Sequence record: MT862763.1
DNA length: 40,294 nucleotides
Source of the DNA: Escherichia phage vB_EcoP-U8
Direction: 5' to 3' (one strand)
In this document: in pieces, positions 1,471 through 35,072 of the stretch
Position numbering within the stretch: position 1 is the first letter of the stretch
Layout of the letters: the number at the start of each line of letters is the position of its first letter
The notes under the pieces: generated by a model
Database searches by the model: none
Told to the model about the DNA's origin: nothing
Seen by the model: only the letters and a program-made list of their open reading frames with translations
Program-made: the position numbers and the translations under genes

Positions 1471-1503
1471 ACGGTTAAATCTCCAGTAGTGTTTATTTAG
1501 GGT

Positions 1504-1546
1504 TAATCATGAAGGCCACGACTTTGAGTCATGACCTTGAGTCTAA
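1504..1546 (-). promoter_or_regulatory. Conserved leader stem-loop element, copy A (candidate RNase III processing site, R1.1 position)
   Basis: Plus-strand TAATCATGAAGGCCAC...ATGACCTTGAGTCTA; RNA can pair AAGGUCAU with GUGGCCUU; same element at 10689..10726 and 34865..34905. Confidence 0.4.
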
Positions 1547-1566
1547 TCCTATAGTGATAGTTTAGG
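1544..1566 (-). promoter_or_regulatory. Phage RNA polymerase promoter (phi1.1 position)
   Basis: RC reads CTAAACTATCACTATAGGATTA; CACTATAGG core as in T7 promoters; upstream of gene 1.1. Confidence 0.75.
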
Positions 1567-5219: not shown

Positions 5220-5593
5220 TACAGTTTGCTCCCAAGTGTTGCTATATCCCAGACGTTCGCTAAGTTACGCATGAATCGTCCGTTAGGTTGACGTACAGTC
5301 CAGCTACCCAGACGTACATATTTGAATTTGTAGACTTTACGCGCTTTGTTGATGTCTCTCACCAGCACGTAGGCGATAAGTCCATAGCCTATGGCTATCA
5401 ATAGTGCGATACTCATAGTCATAAGCCCCATAACAGTTGAGTAAGGACCGGTAGTTTGCAGACTAGAGTAAACATTCCCCACGCTACGAAGCCTGAGATA
5501 GTCCAGATGATTGCAGTGCTCATAGTTAACTCCTATTAATTCAAGTGGTAATCTTTGAGGCCACCTATCAGTCGATGACCTCTCGTCTATCAC
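5219..5593 (-). CDS. hypothetical early protein with predicted transmembrane helix (start uncertain)
   Basis: 124 aa ORF; hydrophobic stretch MSIALLIAIGYGLIAYVLV; a 33-aa alternative-frame ORF with strong SD overlaps near 5430..5531. Confidence 0.3.
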   Translation of the reverse strand: MIDERSSTDRWPQRLPLELIGVNYEHCNHLDYLRLRSVGNVYSSLQTTGPYSTVMGLMTMSIALLIAIGYGLIAYVLVRDINKARKVYKFKYVRLGSWTVRQPNGRFMRNLANVWDIATLGSKL

Positions 5594-5636
5594 TCAGTAC
5601 CCGCCTGTCAGCGTTATGGTCAGGCTGTGATACACG

Positions 5637-6310: not shown

Positions 6311-6380
6311 CTTGTTTATCCTTTAGTTAGTGACTATCAGTCAGGCCGCTATCAGTCTAACGACCTGTAGTTAATCACTC

Positions 6381-6635
6381 TCAGTTAGCGAAATAAGGAG
6401 CTGAGACGCCCACTGTAGGACTCACGGTTATCTGCGAGTCTATCAGGTATGTCTCGTTGTCTATACGCACAGTATCGACGCTGTAGTTGCTGAACTGCTT
6501 GCTTGATACCTTGCGCACTACCACACGGTGACGCGCTCCTGTCATCTCTTTAAGCTGAATCCACGCATAACCTTTAGTGTTCACGAATACTTCATTGCGA
6601 TTAGTGATTGTGCTTAAGTGTTTCATAGTGTCCAT
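6381..6635 (-). CDS. hypothetical first early protein (gene 0.3 position; not Ocr-like)
   Basis: 84 aa ORF; start may be the Met at codon 4 (better SD spacing). Confidence 0.45.
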   Translation of the reverse strand: MDTMKHLSTITNRNEVFVNTKGYAWIQLKEMTGARHRVVVRKVSSKQFSNYSVDTVRIDNETYLIDSQITVSPTVGVSAPYFAN

Positions 6636-6804
6636 CCTTTAAGTTAGTGACTATCAGTCAGGGCCTTCAGATGTAGACTCAAAGGCCCTGTAGTTAGTCG
6701 CTATCGGCGCACATTAAGAGTTTATCCAGATTGTTAAAGAGCATTCCCTTCAGTCAGAGGACTTCAGGTAGACCGTTTCAGTGTCGGTCGTCACCGTTGT
6801 TTCG

Positions 6805-7618: not shown

Positions 7619-7777
7619 TTAACGACACTCAGACACCAGAGAACATACGAGAGTCTCGACCCACCCGACCCACTGACTTCCAGCAGTAACGCCAGCAGCA
7701 AGTAGAACAGCAGCAAGAAACCTGTATGTAGCTCGATTGGTCGCCAGAGCTTTAAGTACAGCTTTGGTCTTTGCCAT
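7619..7777 (-). CDS. small hydrophobic ORF (gene 19.5 position)
   Basis: About 52 aa, MAKTKAVLKALATNRATYRFLAAVLLAAGVTAG...; SD AGGAGG 10 nt upstream; downstream of phiOR-like promoter. Confidence 0.3.
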   Translation of the reverse strand: MAKTKAVLKALATNRATYRFLAAVLLAAGVTAGSQWVGWVETLVCSLVSECR

Positions 7778-7957: not shown

Positions 7958-7980
7958 CTTCCCTATAGTGATAGTTAAGT
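7958..7980 (-). promoter_or_regulatory. Phage RNA polymerase promoter (phiOR position, after gene 19)
   Basis: Plus strand CCTATAGTGATAGTTAAG at 7962..7979. Confidence 0.7.
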
Positions 7981-8074: not shown

Positions 8075-9838
8075 CTAGTGGAACGTAACGTAGTGCCCTA
8101 GTCCAAGCTCGTCGTCCGTATCGTGAGTTACCCGGACCCCATTGTCCCAGAACTCAGTGTGGATGGACTCGAAGCCTTTCCGTGGGTTCTCCATCTGTTC
8201 CTCCAGCCACTCCTCAGTGACTTCACGTTCTCCTTTGTTGGCATCCTTAGCCATAGACTCAACGAAGAACTGTACACCGATAGCCAGCGCATCAAGTCGG
8301 TCATCGTGTGCCAAGGCCCCACGTTCACGAGAGATACGGGTCATCTGATAGAAGAGAGAGTAGATAGGGTTACGAACACCATCCTTGTCAGAGGCTGTCT
8401 GGTAGTCTTGGACGATAGCAGCAGCGTTGACGATAAGTCGGTGAGACCCCATGATAGGCTCCAGAACGTCACAGATGCGGAGTTCTTTCTGACCCTTACT
8501 CTTCACTTCAGTTACAGCCGCAGGATGGATACGGGCCGCTACAGGCTTGAATAACTCAAGGTACATACCATCACCGAAGTTACCCTCAATGACGTATTCG
8601 TTGACCTTCCACTTACGACCAATCTTAGCCAAGGCTTCCAGAGTAGAGTCTTCATAACCACCACGCATACCGCCTACTTCCATAGCGAAGATGTAGCCGT
8701 TGAGCTGATACAGTACCGCATAGCCAGTTTCATCCTTACCACGACCACTAGGGTCAATGACCAGAATCTTCTGGGTGTACGAGCTGAAGGCAGAACCTAC
8801 AGTCTGATACGTGTGGTATGAGTCACCCATGAGTCCAACGTTAGGGACGTCCTCACGCTTGTTCTGAGGGTTAGGCAACCATTGGTAGACCATTGGACTA
8901 GACGCTGGGTCCAAGTCCGCTACGATAAGGTCACGGAGCTTCAGAGGGTACTTCTCAGCATCACTCAGGTTCGGGTTAAGCATGAACTGTAGAGCGAAGC
9001 CAGCTTTACCATAGGACAGCTCACGTTCCTTCAGGTCCGTATCATCGAATCGTACCTCATCGGTCGGACGCCAGTAGAAGGACTCAGGGTCCTCTTCCAG
9101 TTCTGCCTGAAGCATAGGAGCCAGACGGTCGCCGTAAGACTGCCAGTCCTTCCTGTCGCGTGGGTAACGAGCAGGCCAGATAGTAGTGGTGTACCCACGA
9201 CCTTCCAACTCACGGTACAGGGTCATCTCGTTCTGAGGAGTACCCAGATAAATGATTGTGCCTCCCGGCTTCAGGATAGCGTCGAACTCTTTCACAAGCT
9301 CTGACAGACGGTCTCGTGCAGCCTGAGTCGCAGAGTTATTAGGAACCTCCACGTCATCTGCAATCAGGATGTCAGCACGACTACCAGTCAACTGACCAGT
9401 GATACCAACAGACTTAACCGAAGGTGAGTGGTCTGGCTTGGCTGGCCCAACGTCGAAGCTAATAACAGCATCTCGCTGTCCCTGCTTAGGTTTGAGTTCC
9501 TGAAGCTGAGGCATGAGGTCGATGATTCGCTTGATGAATATGGAGTTAGCATCGGCTCGTTCCTTTGAGGCCGACACAATCATGAACTTCAAGTCTGGGT
9601 TGTTCCATAGTTTCCAGACCACGAATGCACACGTAATGAATGACTTCCCGATACCACGGAACGCCTGAAGGATGAAACGCCTGTTGTCCCCAGCCGATAG
9701 TTTCTTCGCCATGTCAATCTGACAGCGAGTCGGGACTGGGAGCGACAGAGCTTTCCACAGGACGAACAGGAAGAACACGAAGTCGGCCTTCATACGTGCC
9801 GTCATAAGCGCCTGACGCGCCGCTAAGTCTTGACTCAA
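8075..9838 (-). CDS. Terminase large subunit (T7 gp19-like DNA maturase B)
   Basis: 587 aa; collinear with T7 gp19 as recalled ([18 protein letters not shown] Walker A region, [19 protein letters not shown]). Confidence 0.95.
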
Positions 9839-10674: not shown

Positions 10675-10688
10675 ACCACCTCCTAGTG

Positions 10689-10726
10689 TTAATCATAAAG
10701 GCCACCAATAGATGACCTTGAGTCTA
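10689..10726 (-). promoter_or_regulatory. Conserved leader stem-loop element, copy B (candidate RNase III site, R18.5 position)
   Basis: TAATCATAAAGGCCAC-N-ATGACCTTGAGTCTA immediately upstream of the endo VII-like gene RBS. Confidence 0.4.
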
Positions 10727-10730
10727 ACAC

Positions 10731-10994
10731 TTACTGGACACCATACCCAGTGTCATTATCCTCGGTCGCTGATAGCACCTTGTCGTACTCTCTGTTCAGC
10801 GCCTCCATGTCTGCCAACTGCTTCTCGTCCACCGACACCTTGCTTAACACAAAGTTGTGACGGGCCAGCAGCTTCTCGATGGCGTTGTAGAGCTGGGGCG
10901 AACGCTTAGAGTCATCCCGCAGGTCTTGCAGCATTAGTCGAGCACGTTCGGTGTCCAGCATTAACAGGAACTTCTCTAAGTCCATCTGCGTCAT
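10731..10994 (-). CDS. Terminase small subunit (T7 gp18-like)
   Basis: 87 aa; FLLMLDTERARLML...RSPQLYNAIEKLL matches T7 gp18 as recalled. Confidence 0.85.
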   Translation of the reverse strand: MTQMDLEKFLLMLDTERARLMLQDLRDDSKRSPQLYNAIEKLLARHNFVLSKVSVDEKQLADMEALNREYDKVLSATEDNDTGYGVQ

Positions 10995-17100: not shown

Positions 17101-18060
17101 GTATGTCAGAGGGTCCACGCCAGCACCAATAACACCAGCAGCTAACTGAGCGCCAGTCCCAGCCTTGGCCTTCTCTTGGTCCAACTTCTGGTTCTCAATC
17201 GCCAAGTTAATAAGCTCAGTCAGGTTCTGAGGGGAGCCACCAGTAATGACTCCGTAATACTGAGGCAGAACCCCAGCGTTACGAATCTGGTCCAGCTCCT
17301 CACGAGACCACTTATGGTTGTTCCATCGCGTCGGGTTGAACACATCGCCAATGACATCCAGTGAGTCCTCAGTCTGACCAGCTCTGATAGCCACGCCGAC
17401 CATAGAGTTCTTCACTTCAGCTTCTGTAGCCGCACCGAAACCGAACCACGTAGAGCGATCCTCTCGTTCCTGCATGGTCTCGCCAGTAGCCTTATAGAAC
17501 ATCTCACCGAACGATTCGTTGGGAGCTTCAGGTGCTTGACCCTCAATGTTCATACCAGCAGCGGTCGGAAGGTTCTCACCCAGAGCTACTTTAGGTTTAT
17601 CCTTGAGTCCTTCCGTGAGTGCGTCAAATACGTTAGCGCTTACTGGTGGAGTCTTTGGGCTAATGCCATTGAGTGCTCGTGCGACTCCCTTCTGATAGAC
17701 TTCAGGGTCGTACCGGGAGCCTGTCTCATGGAAGCTGATAGCTTGAGCCAGAGAAGACAGGGTGTCAGGGTCCGATAGGTCGAGACTCTGGGTCGCCGGG
17801 ATGCCCGTAGCCGAAGCCACTGACTGAATGTACGCCTGAGTGTCGTTCTCGTTCGGAGGTGCCCAACGGTTGATAATCTTCTCGATAGAGTCATAACCTT
17901 GGCGACCGTAGCTTTGAAGGTTTTTAGCTAAGGCTCGGACCCCAGATTCAGGACTATCGAAGATAACGAACGCACCATCATCACCTATAGCACCTTCCCA
18001 TTGGTCTTTGGACTTACGGAGGTTCCCGGGGTTTGAATTCCTTACTCCACGTGTCGCCAT
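14173..18060 (-). CDS. Internal virion protein D (gp16-like) with non-canonical N-terminal domain
   Basis: 1295 aa; long collinear match to T7 gp16 from about residue 250 onward (ENPAMFG, GTYVPHVY, AYNRRVNGDIAIMG); N-terminal ~120 aa does not match the T7 transglycosylase motif. Confidence 0.9.
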   Translation of the reverse strand: MATRGVRNSNPGNLRKSKDQWEGAIGDDGAFVIFDSPESGVRALAKNLQSYGRQGYDSIEKIINRWAPPNENDTQAYIQSVASATGIPATQSLDLSDPDTLSSLAQAISFHETGSRYDPEVYQKGVARALNGISPKTPPVSANVFDALTEGLKDKPKVALGENLPTAAGMNIEGQAPEAPNESFGEMFYKATGETMQEREDRSTWFGFGAATEAEVKNSMVGVAIRAGQTEDSLDVIGDVFNPTRWNNHKWSREELDQIRNAGVLPQYYGVITGGSPQNLTELINLAIENQKLDQEKAKAGTGAQLAAGVIGAGVDPLTYVPIAGQVGKGAKLVNKMFTVAAQSGALAGVSEMARTSVAGGDAHVAEAILGGALFGGGMTAIADGLGRALGRNTNEFAGPATRLEARETARNVDGQDLSRLPIQEGEQTFSHQGVKFADVPNEPGSVRLEDGSILIGENPLNPKTRQVFDEVIEPERAAAGVNLGGLTEIGLKLLRSENPEIRGVAADLVRSPTGMQSGASGKIGTTASDVFERLRSVDHRFYNDIDDAVTEALKDPYFQTAFWRDSGAFRQDIYQRVSMAIEDGSGNLKAELTPGELKVYDLLKNQFDAKREMMENPAMFGRPDAQSIFPGSRFKGTYVPHVYSKQMKELYIKELGSPEALQEAIKKSWLTSYASRPEVKKRVDEALLEADPTLTPEGLAAAVDKYANDKAYGISHTEQFERSSVMEENINGLVGLENNSFLEARNLFDSDMSIVLPNGQTFSVNNLREWDMDKIVPAYNRRVNGDIAIMAGTGKTTKDMKDLVETMMNKAGDDGKLKGEVSTLRDTLKILTGRARRDGADDAAFATVMRTMTDLSFFAKNAYMGVQNLTEIGGMLARGNVRALLHGVPMFRDLAFRNKKVGASEIKDLHNVIFGKELDDSIRPSKQDVIDRLRSYSDLGSGTATALGTAKYYTGELAVRSPFTKVLNGTTNYLLDAGRQGFLSDIVEHSLTGSKRKFDDRWLKTAGISDEQWKGIKSLIRESVTRGPDGKYTIKDKKAFSQDPRAMDLWRMGDTIADETLLRPHKLSNMDAKAYGPLAKTVLQFKNFVIKSINGRTMRTFYNATKNNRAIDAALSTVMSMGLAGIYYMAQAHVKAYAMQDGRDRDYLKQALDPTMIGYAALSRSSHLGGPLGVANILGGIAGYEDTKMLRSSILPRSPTEKPERAIAYGAATSDPVMNVVGNFLEQVPAFGYAANVGASAYNLAGYLKADTRVNERDYMTGMYNTFRELVPNDPITQKLLLGTFEEQGIHIKD

Positions 18061-21378: not shown

Positions 21379-21765
21379 CTAATCCCCCTTCCGGCTTGTA
21401 GCCAGATAGTCAGCAGCCTTACCATCGAAATCTTCGCATTTAGAGTGGTAGTTTCTACGGGTCAGCTTTAGGTTGCAGGTATGACATAGGATTCCTCGGA
21501 CTTTCCCGGAGGTGTGACAGTGGTCAACGCATACTCCTCGGCTAGTTCCTAATGTCTTGCAGATTGCGCAGACCCCGCCCTGCTCTTTTAGGATGGAATC
21601 ATATTCTATCTGCGTAATGTGATACGTCTCGTATCCCTTGTTCTTGTGGCTCCGTCCATTATGACACAGCTTACAGGCAGAGCGTACACCACACTTAGAG
21701 TCTTTCCGTGTAGAGAACGCTTCTAGTGGCTTTTCAATTTTACAGACGGTACAGACCTTAGTCAC
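21379..21765 (-). CDS. Endonuclease VII-family protein (putative homing endonuclease) between gene 13 and 14
   Basis: GGVCAICK...[19 protein letters not shown]; GTG start with SD AAGGAGG; start overlaps gp13 stop. Confidence 0.78.
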
Positions 21766-22220
21766 GTGTCCTCCTTAGAGATAGTGAATAATTGAAAACG
21801 CTCACCAGTTACAGGGCTGATAGTCCAATCATCATGGAACTTAGCCCCAAGCAACTTCAAGAATTTAATGTGAGACTTATTGCCTGACCACACGTAGTTC
21901 CAGATGGTCCCGTATTGGTCTAACATTAAGTCCCTGTACTCAGAGATACACTTTATGAACTCTCGCTTCTCTTTAGGCCCCAGCTTGTAGACCAGACCAG
22001 AAGTCAAGAACCATACGTTATCCCCTTGGTTTCCACCATAGGCAAACACTTCACCTACACCGTTCGTTAAAACCACAGATGATGGAGATAGGTGCTTAAG
22101 CAGTCTCTCTGAGAGACCCACGGTTGACCCGTAGTTTGCTTTGCATTCATTAACATCATCTGCTGAAAGATGCCACAGAAAGTAGTGGACATCTGGTTCC
22201 GTAGCCTTGCGAATATACAT
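21762..22220 (-). CDS. gp13-like protein (internal virion protein A position)
   Basis: 152 aa ORF with SD AAGGAG between gene 12 and 14; assignment by position, sequence not confidently recognised. Confidence 0.5.
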
Positions 22221-22239
22221 AAAGTCTCCTTATAACCTT

Positions 22240-22289
22240 AAGGGCCTATAGTCCCTATAGTGATAGTTAAGGTAAATCTATAGGCCCTT
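22240..22289. repeat. Perfect 12-bp inverted repeat (AAGGGCCTATAG / CTATAGGCCCTT) enclosing the phi13 promoter
   Basis: Arms at 22240..22251 and 22278..22289, 26-nt spacer containing promoter core. Confidence 0.8.
22250..22272 (-). promoter_or_regulatory. Phage RNA polymerase promoter (phi13 position)
   Basis: CCTATAGTGATAGTTAAG at 22254..22271. Confidence 0.75.
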
Positions 22290-22296
22290 CAATAAG

Positions 22297-24654
22297 TTAG
22301 ACGGAACGAGCTTTCTTAGCGTATGACGCCTCCCAGCCACAGCCAACGATGGACACTGGGGTAGGATAATCTGACTCTAAGGTTAGACTCGTGGTTAATG
22401 CGTTACCATTCATAGCGAAGCGATACTGACCGTCACCAATGTTGGTAGTCCCAATGGTCTGCTGACCAAGGGTGTACCCATTAAAGGTGTTCACGAACTC
22501 CCGCTCACCGTTTCTGACAATGAGTCTAAGAGCGCCAGTGTCCTTGTAGTTGACCCAAGCCCGACGAAGTTGTAGGCGTCCAGTGTCTTCAGACTGAGTG
22601 CCGCTATCGTCTTCAATCTTAATCAGGAACCGTGAGAACTTGTAGGACATCAGATAAGACCGTCCTATGAACACTGTACGTCCTGACCAATCGCCATTTA
22701 GTATAGCCACAGTTGAGATGTCTGTCAATTCACCAAGGTCCACGTAGGCACCCTGACTGTCAATAAGATAGTACCGACCGGGAGACGGAGCGTTTCCACC
22801 ATAAGCAGAACCAATGTCAACCGTAGTCTTATAGGTGTCAACGTTGTATGAGCCAATTGGTATTACCATAGACACCTTGGAGTCAACGTGGAGTCTATAT
22901 GGCTCTAACGGAAAGTCGGTTGCCTCCTTGATAAACTTAAGGTGCTCAAGGTCCACACCGCCTTGGTGCTGACGAACAATGAACATGGTAGAGCCAATCG
23001 AAGCAGACGCCAGAATCTTATCAGCTTTAGGGAACTCCCAGTGCGACCAAGAGGCTTGAAGCTGTACGCCGTCCTTAAACAAGAACTTATAGATGTAGAT
23101 TCGGTTGTATGCACCTGTAGAGTTGACGCAGATGTAGTTCTCAGTCCCTGTACCTTGAATGTCAAACACCCCGTTAGGGATATAGGACAGTACGTGACCA
23201 GTGGTATCATCGGCATCCTTCACGTCAGACACATCTGCTACAGCGAAGTATCGCTTAATGCTGGTGAATGACCCACGAGGCGCTGAGAAGAAGACTGAGC
23301 GTCCTACAGCGAACGGTCTGGCGTTATCACCTAAGGCAAACTCTGAGCCTACATCAAGCTGGATAGACTTCGAGGTAAGGACCCCAGAGCTTGTCATCAC
23401 GAACTGCACCTCATCCGACCAAAGTAGTAGCTGCTCGCTAAACGGAACGGCATACTTAAGGATTGAGATTCTAGGATGACTTACAGCTACGTCAATAGGA
23501 TCATCATCACTCAGTGTAGCCACACTCTTAGGGAAGAACGCAAAGTAGCTGGCTGAACGGCTCATGATTACGTTCTCGCCTGACAAGAACCCCAGCCTAT
23601 TCCTGTAGAAGAACACATCGTTAATCGTAGCATCCACGAAGCTAGGCATAGGGTTTGTGTCATCATTACCAGCACCACGATTAGACCAGTCCAGAGTCTT
23701 GAACTCAAAGGAGCCGTCAGATTGTCTCACCAGAGCATGAGGCATTGTGGTGTTATCGAACCCAGTGACCACTCCCGGCTCTACTGTCTCCTTCCACGTC
23801 TTAGTGTTGGAGTCATACATCACGTAATATTCATCGGCGCTACTGTTGGTCTCACCTTGAATCTTAATGATGTACCCATTTGGAGCTGCAAGAGGCAACT
23901 TAGAGATTGTTTGCACCGTGTCGAGTACTGGGCTGATTAGCTGGTTAGCATAGCCATCCTCCGTCTCCACTGAGTTAATGTCAGTCCCTGAAGGGGCAGT
24001 GATTAACAGGAATCCAGACCCAAGGTCGAACGTGAAGGTAGGGTAAGCAGCAACAAGAAGGTCTCTCAGAGCTGCACCGATGGCTTGAGCGTCCACCTTA
24101 GGTGGGTCATTCTCGGCATCATTACCTGCTGGTAGCTTATGCGAGACCTTAACGCCACCGTTGATTCCCACCTTAAGGGTTCGACCATACTGTCCGCCAC
24201 GCAGGTTAATTAAAGCTCGTGCTTTGCGGTTATAACCAGAGTGTGACTTCTCGCTTCCACCTTTAACGACAACCTTACGGTTCACGATGAACGTATAGTC
24301 TGCAACAGTAACGACACGGATGTCATCTCGCGGGTTGGACGACTTAACGTAATCTACCGCACCGGAAACTGAGTATTGATTACCACTCAAGTCAACTACC
24401 TGAATGTTTGACCCGTTGAACACGATGTAATACTGCTCATGCTCGTCACGGTTAATCAGGTGGAACTTAGGGTTGCTCCCAACGTCGATGTTAAGACGTC
24501 TCTTGAAGACTGTAGGTGGACGCTTCTGTAGGCCATCACTCTCTGATGACCAGCAGTTTACCTGTTCCTCGCCTTGGTCCGAGAACCTCAGGATGTCTGG
24601 CTGCTGGCTAATGCCACCTTTAAGGTTCTTGATTGATTGAGTAATTAGTGGCAT
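22297..24654 (-). CDS. Tail tubular protein B (gp12-like)
   Basis: 785 aa; MPLITQSIKNLKGGISQQPDILRF and GRLQLRRAWVNY match T7 gp12 as recalled. Confidence 0.95.
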   Translation of the reverse strand: MPLITQSIKNLKGGISQQPDILRFSDQGEEQVNCWSSESDGLQKRPPTVFKRRLNIDVGSNPKFHLINRDEHEQYYIVFNGSNIQVVDLSGNQYSVSGAVDYVKSSNPRDDIRVVTVADYTFIVNRKVVVKGGSEKSHSGYNRKARALINLRGGQYGRTLKVGINGGVKVSHKLPAGNDAENDPPKVDAQAIGAALRDLLVAAYPTFTFDLGSGFLLITAPSGTDINSVETEDGYANQLISPVLDTVQTISKLPLAAPNGYIIKIQGETNSSADEYYVMYDSNTKTWKETVEPGVVTGFDNTTMPHALVRQSDGSFEFKTLDWSNRGAGNDDTNPMPSFVDATINDVFFYRNRLGFLSGENVIMSRSASYFAFFPKSVATLSDDDPIDVAVSHPRISILKYAVPFSEQLLLWSDEVQFVMTSSGVLTSKSIQLDVGSEFALGDNARPFAVGRSVFFSAPRGSFTSIKRYFAVADVSDVKDADDTTGHVLSYIPNGVFDIQGTGTENYICVNSTGAYNRIYIYKFLFKDGVQLQASWSHWEFPKADKILASASIGSTMFIVRQHQGGVDLEHLKFIKEATDFPLEPYRLHVDSKVSMVIPIGSYNVDTYKTTVDIGSAYGGNAPSPGRYYLIDSQGAYVDLGELTDISTVAILNGDWSGRTVFIGRSYLMSYKFSRFLIKIEDDSGTQSEDTGRLQLRRAWVNYKDTGALRLIVRNGEREFVNTFNGYTLGQQTIGTTNIGDGQYRFAMNGNALTTSLTLESDYPTPVSIVGCGWEASYAKKARSV

Positions 24655-24891: not shown

Positions 24892-25457
24892 TAGTCCCTC
24901 CCGATGTCGGACATCATGTTGTAGCGACCAGTGTCCATCTCGTACTCCATCACCTGCTGGTAGAGTTCTGCTTCCTGCTCACGAAGGTACAGTTCAGACT
25001 CTGGGCTACCGAAGAACTTAGCGTTGAACTCACGGCTAGCCTTGGTAACGATGTAGTCACGGAATACTACAGGCATCTCAGCGAACGGTTTCATCTCCAC
25101 CAGTTCGACTGTAATTGGTCCAGTGAAGGTCGTGGACTGAGTGGACAGGTCATAGAGATAGCCCCCCATGTTGCTGTAGTAACTGGTAGCACCAGCAGTC
25201 ATGACCCGAAGGTAAGACGGCAGGAATCGAATCCTATTGTCTTGGACATCAGGTGTCAGGACAGCAGCTTCGTTGATGTTAAAGTTCCAGCCTTTAGCTT
25301 GGACCTGACGATTGACACGATGCAGGATACGTTGAGCGTTCGAGACGTCAGCGTTACCTTCGTCAAGCTGTAGGACTGCTGGTTCACCGATAGCTGCTAA
25401 CATATCGTTGATGGCATCTAAGTCATCGTTAGCATTCAGTGGAATGTATTGAGCCAT
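24891..25457 (-). CDS. Tail tubular protein A (gp11-like)
   Basis: 188 aa; matches T7 gp11 as recalled (IVTKASREFNAKFFG, MEYEMD). Confidence 0.9.
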   Translation of the reverse strand: MAQYIPLNANDDLDAINDMLAAIGEPAVLQLDEGNADVSNAQRILHRVNRQVQAKGWNFNINEAAVLTPDVQDNRIRFLPSYLRVMTAGATSYYSNMGGYLYDLSTQSTTFTGPITVELVEMKPFAEMPVVFRDYIVTKASREFNAKFFGSPESELYLREQEAELYQQVMEYEMDTGRYNMMSDIGRD

Positions 25458-25571
25458 AGGTTTACTCCTTAACGGTCATAGGCGCTAGACGGTGAGCTGG
25501 ACAGCAGGTACGCCCAGAATAAGACGAATAGTGCTAACCCTGTGTAAATAAGGACCATAGTCCCTCCTTAA

Positions 25572-27031: not shown

Positions 27032-27054
27032 TCTCCCTATAGTGATAGTTTAGT
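27032..27054 (-). promoter_or_regulatory. Phage RNA polymerase promoter (phi10), full consensus with GGGAGA start
   Basis: RC: CTAAACTATCACTATAGGGAGACC; transcript 5' end can form GGGAGACC...GGUUUCCC stem as in T7 phi10 leader. Confidence 0.85.
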
Positions 27055-34845: not shown

Positions 34846-34864
34846 GGTTAATCCTCCGTTTAGT

Positions 34865-34905
34865 CTAATCATAAAGGCCACTCTATGTGAATGACCTTTA
34901 GTCTA
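34865..34905 (-). promoter_or_regulatory. Conserved leader stem-loop element, copy C (candidate RNase III site upstream of gene 5)
   Basis: CTAATCATAAAGGCCAC-N-ATGACCTTTAGTCTA immediately upstream of pol RBS. Confidence 0.4.
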
Positions 34906-34908
34906 GAC

Positions 34909-35072
34909 CTAGAAGTCTGTACGCAAGAAGTGGTACATAAACTTCCGGTTAGCTTTCTTCCATGCCTTAGAGTCGAACCTCTGGTCTCCCAGAATGTTGG
35001 ACAGGAAGGTTGCTTCATCGCTCCACCATTTGTACATGAACCGATGGTAGCGAGCTTTAAGTTTCTTGAACA

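Follow-up and report, generated by a model that had tools for sequence, protein, structure and literature searches.

A promoter-enclosing hairpin at the gene 12/13 junction of Kayfunavirus phages, a probable counterpart of the R13 RNase III site

Introduction

In bacteriophage T7, R13 lies between genes 12 and 13 and is an RNase III site (PMC6938266; 10.1101/106799), which was described as a weak one (10.1101/106799). The curated record of T3 annotates a stem-loop at 25443-25480 as 'RNase III recognition site R13', which overlaps 'T3 promoter phi13' (25457-25479), and in the curated record of phiYeO3-12 an equivalent stem-loop, the 'putative RNase III site R13', overlaps phi13 as well. A related arrangement is found at R6.5. 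In T3, the annotated R6.5 stem-loop (17135-17206) encloses the promoter phi6.5 (17160-17182). In both T7 and T3, R6.5 folds into two helices, an outer one of 9 bp and an inner one of 10 bp, which are separated by an internal loop, and the apical loop holds the promoter. For T7, whose RefSeq and V01146 records are without RNase III features, we took the cleavage coordinates to be 27281 (R13) and 18563 (R6.5). The canonical bipartite sites of these phages (R0.3, R0.5, R1, R1.1, R1.3, R4.7 and R18.5) are intergenic, lie on the sense strand and have about 18-20 bp of helix in total, broken by an internal loop. All of these properties are shared by the element described here.

The window, that is the whole stretch of 40,294 nucleotides analysed (Escherichia phage vB_EcoP-U8, MT862763.1), is the genome of a Kayfunavirus (K1F-like, T7 supergroup) in reverse orientation, so the genes of interest are on the minus strand. 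A 1.2-kb query around the element matched 218 phage records, mostly Escherichia, Salmonella or Kayfunavirus entries, whose annotation of the region gave tail tubular protein B and then internal virion protein. The gene 12/13 junction of K1F was identical in sequence to that of the window.

Results

Layout of the gene 12/13 junction

The initial annotation had pointed out a perfect 12-bp inverted repeat flanking phi13. A repeat search confirmed it exactly, with arms at 22240-22251 (AAGGGCCTATAG) and 22278-22289 (CTATAGGCCCTT), each of 12 nt, 100% complementary and spaced by 26 nt. On the transcript strand, the gene 12 stop codon was followed by the 5' arm, the loop, the 3' arm, the Shine-Dalgarno sequence and the ATG of gene 13. 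The features of the junction, in transcript order, were as follows.

22297..24654, minus strand: gene 12 (tail tubular protein B, 785 aa), from the open reading frame list and the annotation of relatives
22299-22297, minus strand: gene 12 stop codon TAA (UAA), from the sequence
22294..22299, minus strand: 5' strand of the outer helix, UAACUU, which contains the gene 12 stop codon and has its partner at 22233-22238, from MFE and centroid folds
Between the gene 12 stop codon and the 5' arm, minus strand: spacer CUUAUUG, from the sequence
22278..22289, minus strand: 5' arm of the main stem, AAGGGCCUAUAG, about -34 to -23 from the +1 of phi13, present in read-through transcripts only
22252..22277, minus strand: loop AUUUACCUUAACUAUCACUAUAGGGA, 26 nt, carrying phi13 from about -22 to +4, from a motif match
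22250..22272, minus strand: phi13 promoter, -17 to +6 by T7 convention, from a motif match
22240..22251, minus strand: CUAUAGGCCCUU, the 3' arm of the main stem, corresponding to +5 to +16 in transcripts from phi13, from the repeat search and the sequence
22233..22238, minus strand: 3' strand of the outer helix, AGGUUA, from the folds and RNAalifold
Between the 3' arm and the Shine-Dalgarno sequence, minus strand: AAGGUUAU, from the sequence
22231-22226 and 22220-22218, minus strand: Shine-Dalgarno sequence AAGGAG and gene 13 start codon ATG, both just outside the structure
21762..22220, minus strand: gene 13 (internal virion protein A homologue, 152 aa), from the open reading frame list and the annotation of tblastn matches

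The promoter in the loop, ACTATCACTATAGGGA, was a perfect match to the phage promoter motif of the window, with the G at 22255 as +1. Positions -17 to +4 therefore fall within the loop and +5 to +16 make up the 3' arm. Since the other promoters of the window diverge past +4, the 3' arm is outside the promoter consensus. The motif occurred in the window in four perfect and 11 near copies (three mismatches or fewer), all on the minus strand, against a chance expectation of 0.38.

Folding of the read-through RNA and transcription context

It had further been claimed that gene 12 read-through RNA would form a hairpin containing the promoter sequence, and the folding analysis bore this out. The predicted fold of 76 nt had an energy of -23.2 kcal/mol (z = -3.1), and none of 200 shuffles was as good. 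Among the window's 11 promoters, phi13 had the lowest folding energy (-27.2 kcal/mol from -50 to +30) and alone had a strong helix connecting the sequence upstream of it with that downstream. The 5' leader initiated at phi13 folded no better than its shuffles (z = +1.0). Transcripts that start at 22255 are without the 5' arm, so they cannot form the hairpin and would not be processed. A 5-bp helix was also predicted inside the loop (CCUUA/UAGGG); it was rejected as not conserved, since relatives with other promoters are unable to form it. An Rfam scan of 21900-22700 gave no family at the element and just two chance-level matches elsewhere in that range. A sliding 70-nt MFE scan of the whole transcribed strand was swamped by G+C-rich coding sequence and was uninformative for phi13; all that it located was a Tphi-like terminator and a leader hairpin that follows the 27049 promoter.

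This Tphi-like terminator, GAAACCCCUUGGGUGCCUUCGGGUGCUUGAGGGGUUUUUUUG, is located at 25614-25545 on the minus strand, upstream of genes 11-12. Phage promoters upstream of phi13 were found only at 27049 and beyond, and there was no phage promoter between the terminator and phi13, indicating that genes 11-12 are transcribed by read-through only and that all of these transcripts enter the hairpin, as in T7. The transcript from the 27049 promoter begins with a 5' stem-loop (GGGAGACC...GGUUUCCC, 27049-26990, minus strand), which we take to be the same device as the T7 phi10 leader.

A stable hairpin in nascent read-through RNA might suggest an attenuator, as had been proposed, or a pause site for phage RNA polymerase arriving from gene 12. 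However, a class I intrinsic terminator has a G+C-rich, short-loop stem followed by a U-run. The phi13 stem encloses a loop of 26 nt and is followed by AAGGUUAUAAGGAG, which is not a U-run, and a scan for terminators and sigma-70 promoters found nothing at the site. By contrast, the genuine Tphi-like terminator of the window has a G+C-rich stem and then UUUUUUU. Furthermore, the expression of genes 13-16 is required. As the stem is without a U-run and no terminator was called, this proposal was rejected, and we give it hardly any credence.

Comparison with canonical RNase III sites

A covariance model (R1) was built from seven canonical T3 RNase III sites, the consensus consisting of a lower stem, an ACUC/UAUGA internal loop and an AAGGUC...GGCCUU upper stem. 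The model recovered eight T7 sites outside the training set with 33-62 bits, and eight T7 cleavage coordinates, among them that of R6.5 but not that of R13, were located inside its matches. In the window, it found six sites with 30-51 bits, all on the minus strand.

10681-10735, minus strand: covariance model match
1495-1554, minus strand: covariance model match
34858-34914, minus strand: covariance model match
6325-6383, minus strand: covariance model match
6642-6706, minus strand: covariance model match
5540-5598, minus strand: covariance model match

Judging from the model, they are presumably the counterparts of the early-region sites, R1.1/R1.3 and R18.5. The presence of six canonical T7-type sites indicates that the phage relies on host RNase III. 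The phi13 hairpin reached only 5.9 bits with the filters off (E about 1.2 in a 321-nt search). The same model misses R13 and R3.8 in both T7 and T3. In contrast to the canonical bipartite sites, the phi13 element is without their sequence and structure consensus, and its failure in the model assigns it to the non-canonical R13 class and sets it apart from the canonical bipartite family. A helix of 12 bp is near the lower limit for E. coli RNase III substrates.

Two more bipartite hairpins were observed on the minus strand, at 8065-8017 and 7585-7545 (z = -4.1 and -3.9, respectively). In both, a perfect lower stem of 11 bp leads through a 3x4 internal loop to an upper stem of 4-6 bp. The former follows a 587-aa open reading frame (8075-9838), lies just upstream of the promoter at 7975 and contains the promoter-like AACUAUAGG in its arms. 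The latter follows a small open reading frame (7619-7777). The canonical RNase III model matched neither of them.

Conservation within Kayfunavirus

Junctions were gathered by gp13 homology from IMG/VR, metagenomes and GenBank phages, which gave 26 distinct Kayfunavirus-type variants, plus L126, as the within-genus set. The conserved part of the stem was a 9-bp core (GGCCUAUAG/CUAUAGGCC), invariant or nearly so in the 26 variants; the exceptions were one G.U change (L034) and two uncompensated single changes (L124 and L126). Over the genus as a whole, uncompensated single changes were seen in L124, L126 and L132. The three pairs at the base of the stem that complete the 12 bp were not conserved, the third from the base (G-C) being kept in 8 of 26 variants, and the perfect 12 bp is specific to the K1F sublineage. 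The arm core stayed the same against a background of variation in the coding end of gene 12, in the specificity region of the promoter and in the spacer that precedes the ribosome binding site. RNAalifold on the 26 variants kept the 9-bp core and also an outer helix of 5 bp (UAACU/AGUUA), of which the gene 12 stop codon is a part. Three of seven tested pairs of the outer helix were invariant, and 88.5% of the cells were paired.

The initial annotation had called for a comparison with relatives in search of compensatory changes in the arms. Within Kayfunavirus the arms were strongly conserved, but no pair was changed on both sides in the 26-27 variants, and the covariation score was no better than the shuffle expectation; co-variation was found between genera only (see below). 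Without a compensatory change, the within-genus data do not distinguish structural from sequence conservation.

Three different promoter specificity regions were found inside the same arms. For example, at about 60 nt before gene 13, the phi13 loops of Kayfunavirus-type contigs from IMG/VR (L017/L048, L022/L052 and L054) had ATTACACCCTCACTATAGGGA and TTTAACACTCACTATAGGGA as specificity regions, with unchanged arms. These differences indicate RNA polymerase/promoter specificity variants within the phage group.

Hairpins at phi13 in other genera

Searching with tblastn located roughly 1,200 gene 12/13 junctions in Studiervirinae. Of the sampled genera in which this junction exists, nearly all had a hairpin overlapping phi13, and one was a possible exception. 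It was present in Teseptimavirus, Teetrevirus, Berlinvirus, Ghunavirus, Unyawovirus and Caroctavirus (CR8), and also in Klebsiella phage P2328 and its relatives (a record without genus) and in phages like Dickeya phage Ninurta. Examples of these hairpins are given here.

T7: arms UUCUCCCUGUGGUGG / UCACUAUAGGGAGAA
T3-like phages: arms GUCUCCCUG.GGUG / CUCACUAAAGGGAGAC
Klebsiella phage P2328 and similar IMG/VR loci: 19 bp, arms GUCUCCCUGUGGUGUUGCU / GGUAGCACUAUAGGGAGAC
Dickeya phage Ninurta-like phages: 3' arm formed by +1 to +15

In these genera, the 5' arm was complementary to the promoter or the initial transcribed sequence of the same phage, and thus between genera the arm changes along with the promoter. 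In 23 sequences of the T7, T3 and P2328 types, 94% of cells paired in register and at most 61% when the register was slid by one to three columns, a test that was likewise made on related sequences. Many of the changes in this set were from G.U to A-U or G-C, and one was an exchange of G-C for U-A. On the antisense strand of T7 the central pairs were lost. Mean folding energies were -30.0 kcal/mol for the sense RNA and -22.1 kcal/mol for the antisense, and the sense strand gave the more stable fold in 45 of 49 unique relatives; as the sequences are related and non-independent, the p-value of this comparison is indicative only. Arms that differ and track the promoter, G.U wobbles and the better fold of the sense strand together point to a structure at the RNA level.

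These data bear on the proposal that the repeat works in DNA, as a cruciform or a protein-binding palindrome that modulates phi13, or as part of a secondary replication origin. The window repeat is perfectly Watson-Crick paired, so that both DNA strands can fold, and the arm core of Kayfunavirus is conserved in sequence and not in pairing alone. It is also known that T7 fragments containing promoters can serve as secondary replication origins. However, a spacer of 26 bp strongly disfavours cruciform extrusion. Between genera the arms are not conserved and shift in both sequence and register, which argues against a conserved protein site, and relatives need G.U wobbles for their pairing, which weakens markedly on the antisense strand. 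The idea of a DNA structure modulating the promoter was therefore not upheld, and we regard a DNA-level element as quite unlikely.

The repeat might also be a functionless by-product of a duplication around the promoter core, which occurs as three CTATAG copies. The 3' arm resembles a tandem copy of this core (CTATAGGGA followed by CTATAGGCC), of which the 5' arm is the inverse, and chance alone produces some repeats of this kind: dinucleotide-shuffled windows held on average 0.15 perfect 12-bp inverted repeats with a 3-60 nt loop, and 10% of the shuffles had at least one somewhere. In the whole window, the phi13 repeat was the sole one, and by our own arithmetic from the shuffles the expected count of such repeats enclosing one of the 11 promoters was about 5e-4. 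Moreover, the arm core was near-invariant in the 26 variants while neighbouring sequence, including coding sequence, diverged, and a hairpin was found at the same junction in nearly every genus sampled. A functionless origin of the repeat thus appears highly improbable.

Three contigs from IMG/VR (L056-L058) had a different arrangement at the gene 12/13 junction. A G+C-rich hairpin, GGCCCCUUCGGGGCC, was located upstream of the promoter and a second one (GGGGACC...GGUUCC) started from +1, with no single hairpin across the promoter.

Discussion

Relation to R13 and R6.5

The element of the window lies in the intergenic region that separates the tail tubular B gene (gene 12) from the gene for internal virion protein A (gene 13), and forms a stable sense-strand hairpin that overlaps phi13 and requires sequence upstream of +1. 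These properties are those of the R13 class. As with R13 of T7, T3 and phiYeO3-12, it occupies the same gene 12/13 junction, overlaps phi13 and exists in read-through RNA only. Like R13 of T7 and T3, it is a simple, non-canonical hairpin that the covariance model of canonical sites did not detect. However, the register is different. In T7 and T3, the 3' arm of R13 is the promoter core itself (about -8 to +7), whereas in the window the 3' arm is +5 to +16 and the whole promoter is in the 26-nt loop. The arm sequences are unrelated except for a common CUAUAG. In addition, cleavage is reported for T7 R13 and is predicted by analogy for the Kayfunavirus element.

In its layout, the element is similar to R6.5 of T7 and T3: both have an outer and an inner helix with an internal loop between them, and the inner helix, of 10-12 bp, closes an apical loop that contains an entire phage promoter. 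The similarity extends to the base of the inner helix (AAGG..CC / GG..CCUU). The promoter-in-loop arrangement of Kayfunavirus phi13 thus already has a precedent at R6.5/phi6.5. Unlike the phi13 element, R6.5 has the canonical consensus of lower stem and internal loop (AAGUGAUAA...ACUC / UAUGAUUAU), with 39-40 bits, and it is located at a different junction. By position, the sequence comparison identifies the element as the Kayfunavirus counterpart of R13 of T3 and phiYeO3-12, that is, a known kind of feature in a variant register. The phi13 hairpin is conserved but ordinary and is no new kind of element.

Proposed processing of the read-through transcript

We consider that the hairpin is probably the R13 of Kayfunavirus, an RNA stem-loop that would serve both for processing by host RNase III and as a 3'-stabilising hairpin. 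What is observed directly is the hairpin with its position and its conservation, as well as the homologous feature that the T3 and phiYeO3-12 records annotate. The initial annotation had mentioned an R13-like processing site among its possibilities, and this suggestion stands with regard to position, structure, the annotation of T3 and phiYeO3-12 and the recurrence across genera; it does not extend to the canonical RNase III model, with its score of 5.9 bits.

By analogy with the described sites, the following course of events may be proposed. Read-through transcripts from the upstream late promoters would pass the Tphi-like terminator into genes 11-12 and then reach the hairpin, where the 12-bp stem (9 bp of it conserved) would be stacked on an outer helix of 5-6 bp, with the phi13 sequence in the loop. 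Host RNase III would recognise this hairpin, probably weakly, as at R13 of T7 and T3. The cut would be made near the 3' base of the stem, at about 22238-22240, between the two helices, if T3 and T7 R6.5 are a guide. It would separate the gene 11-12 message, which would keep a protective 3' hairpin, from the message of gene 13 and downstream genes. Processing would leave the gene 13 message with a short 5' leader resembling that of transcripts initiated at phi13. For this phage we infer the cleavage by RNase III, the position of the cut and the stabilising effect from these analogies.

Alternatively, the hairpin could act uncleaved, as a barrier to 3'-exonucleases or by structurally insulating the cistron of gene 12 from that of gene 13 in the read-through mRNA; it might uncouple translation, or protect the upstream message after other endonucleolytic cuts. 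A stable hairpin (-23 to -28 kcal/mol) directly after the gene 12 stop codon would suit such a role, as would the unmatched canonical model and the just weak cutting of T7 R13 (10.1101/106799). However, the homologous stem-loops of T3 and phiYeO3-12 are annotated as RNase III sites, and the arrangement of outer and inner helices around an internal loop is reminiscent of R6.5. We think that a purely non-cleaving role, in either of these forms, is rather unlikely as the main explanation. It is compatible with processing at a Kayfunavirus R13 and not exclusive of it.

Possible origin of the layout and implications

In sequence, the 3' arm has the appearance of a promoter core that was copied in tandem and then diverged. 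Compared with the T7-type arm GTCCCTATAG (GTCCCCTATGG in the close relative CR8), the arm pair of the window has two changes, each matched on the other side. As a speculation, these would be compensated changes of U-A to G-C and of C-G to G-C relative to the T7-type arm. An adaptive register shift might be imagined on this basis, in which a 9-nt duplication of the promoter core (from CTATAGGGA to CTATAGGGA-CTATAGGCC) together with the two compensated changes moved the R13 helix off the promoter; we hold this scenario to be doubtful. If it were true, the promoter would have been freed from being half of a palindrome, which would explain the swaps of specificity inside unchanged arms. The promoter-in-loop hairpin might then also equalise the 5' leaders of processed and primary gene 13 mRNAs, or might mark a secondary replication origin.

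Identification with R13 explains the conspicuous palindrome of K1F-type phages, which are used in phage therapy and engineering and are the source of an orthogonal RNA polymerase/promoter pair. As a conserved and probably post-transcriptional signal, the element should be kept whole when the gene 12/13 junction is refactored or a phi13 fragment is reused; a fragment with both arms would put a 12-bp hairpin into any read-through transcript. More generally, a hairpin overlaps phi13 almost throughout the Studiervirinae, and the pairing partner tracks the promoter of each phage. The junction thus illustrates, on a small scale and in nature, how a regulatory RNA structure co-evolves with the specificity of the polymerase.

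Other observations at the junction

Two features were noticed in single phages or groups of phages. Pectobacterium phage vB_PcaP_P15_PC2B6 (L032, ON995367) has at positions 160-400 of the gathered locus an exact tandem duplication of about 110 nt, which extends from the end of gene 12 through the R13-type hairpin and the promoter to the ribosome binding site and an ATG. The duplication could be real or an assembly artefact. In T3-like phages, namely T3 itself (L134, NC_003298, positions 497-512) and L080, a poly-G run of about 10-15 G was found between R13/phi13 and the ribosome binding site of gene 13.
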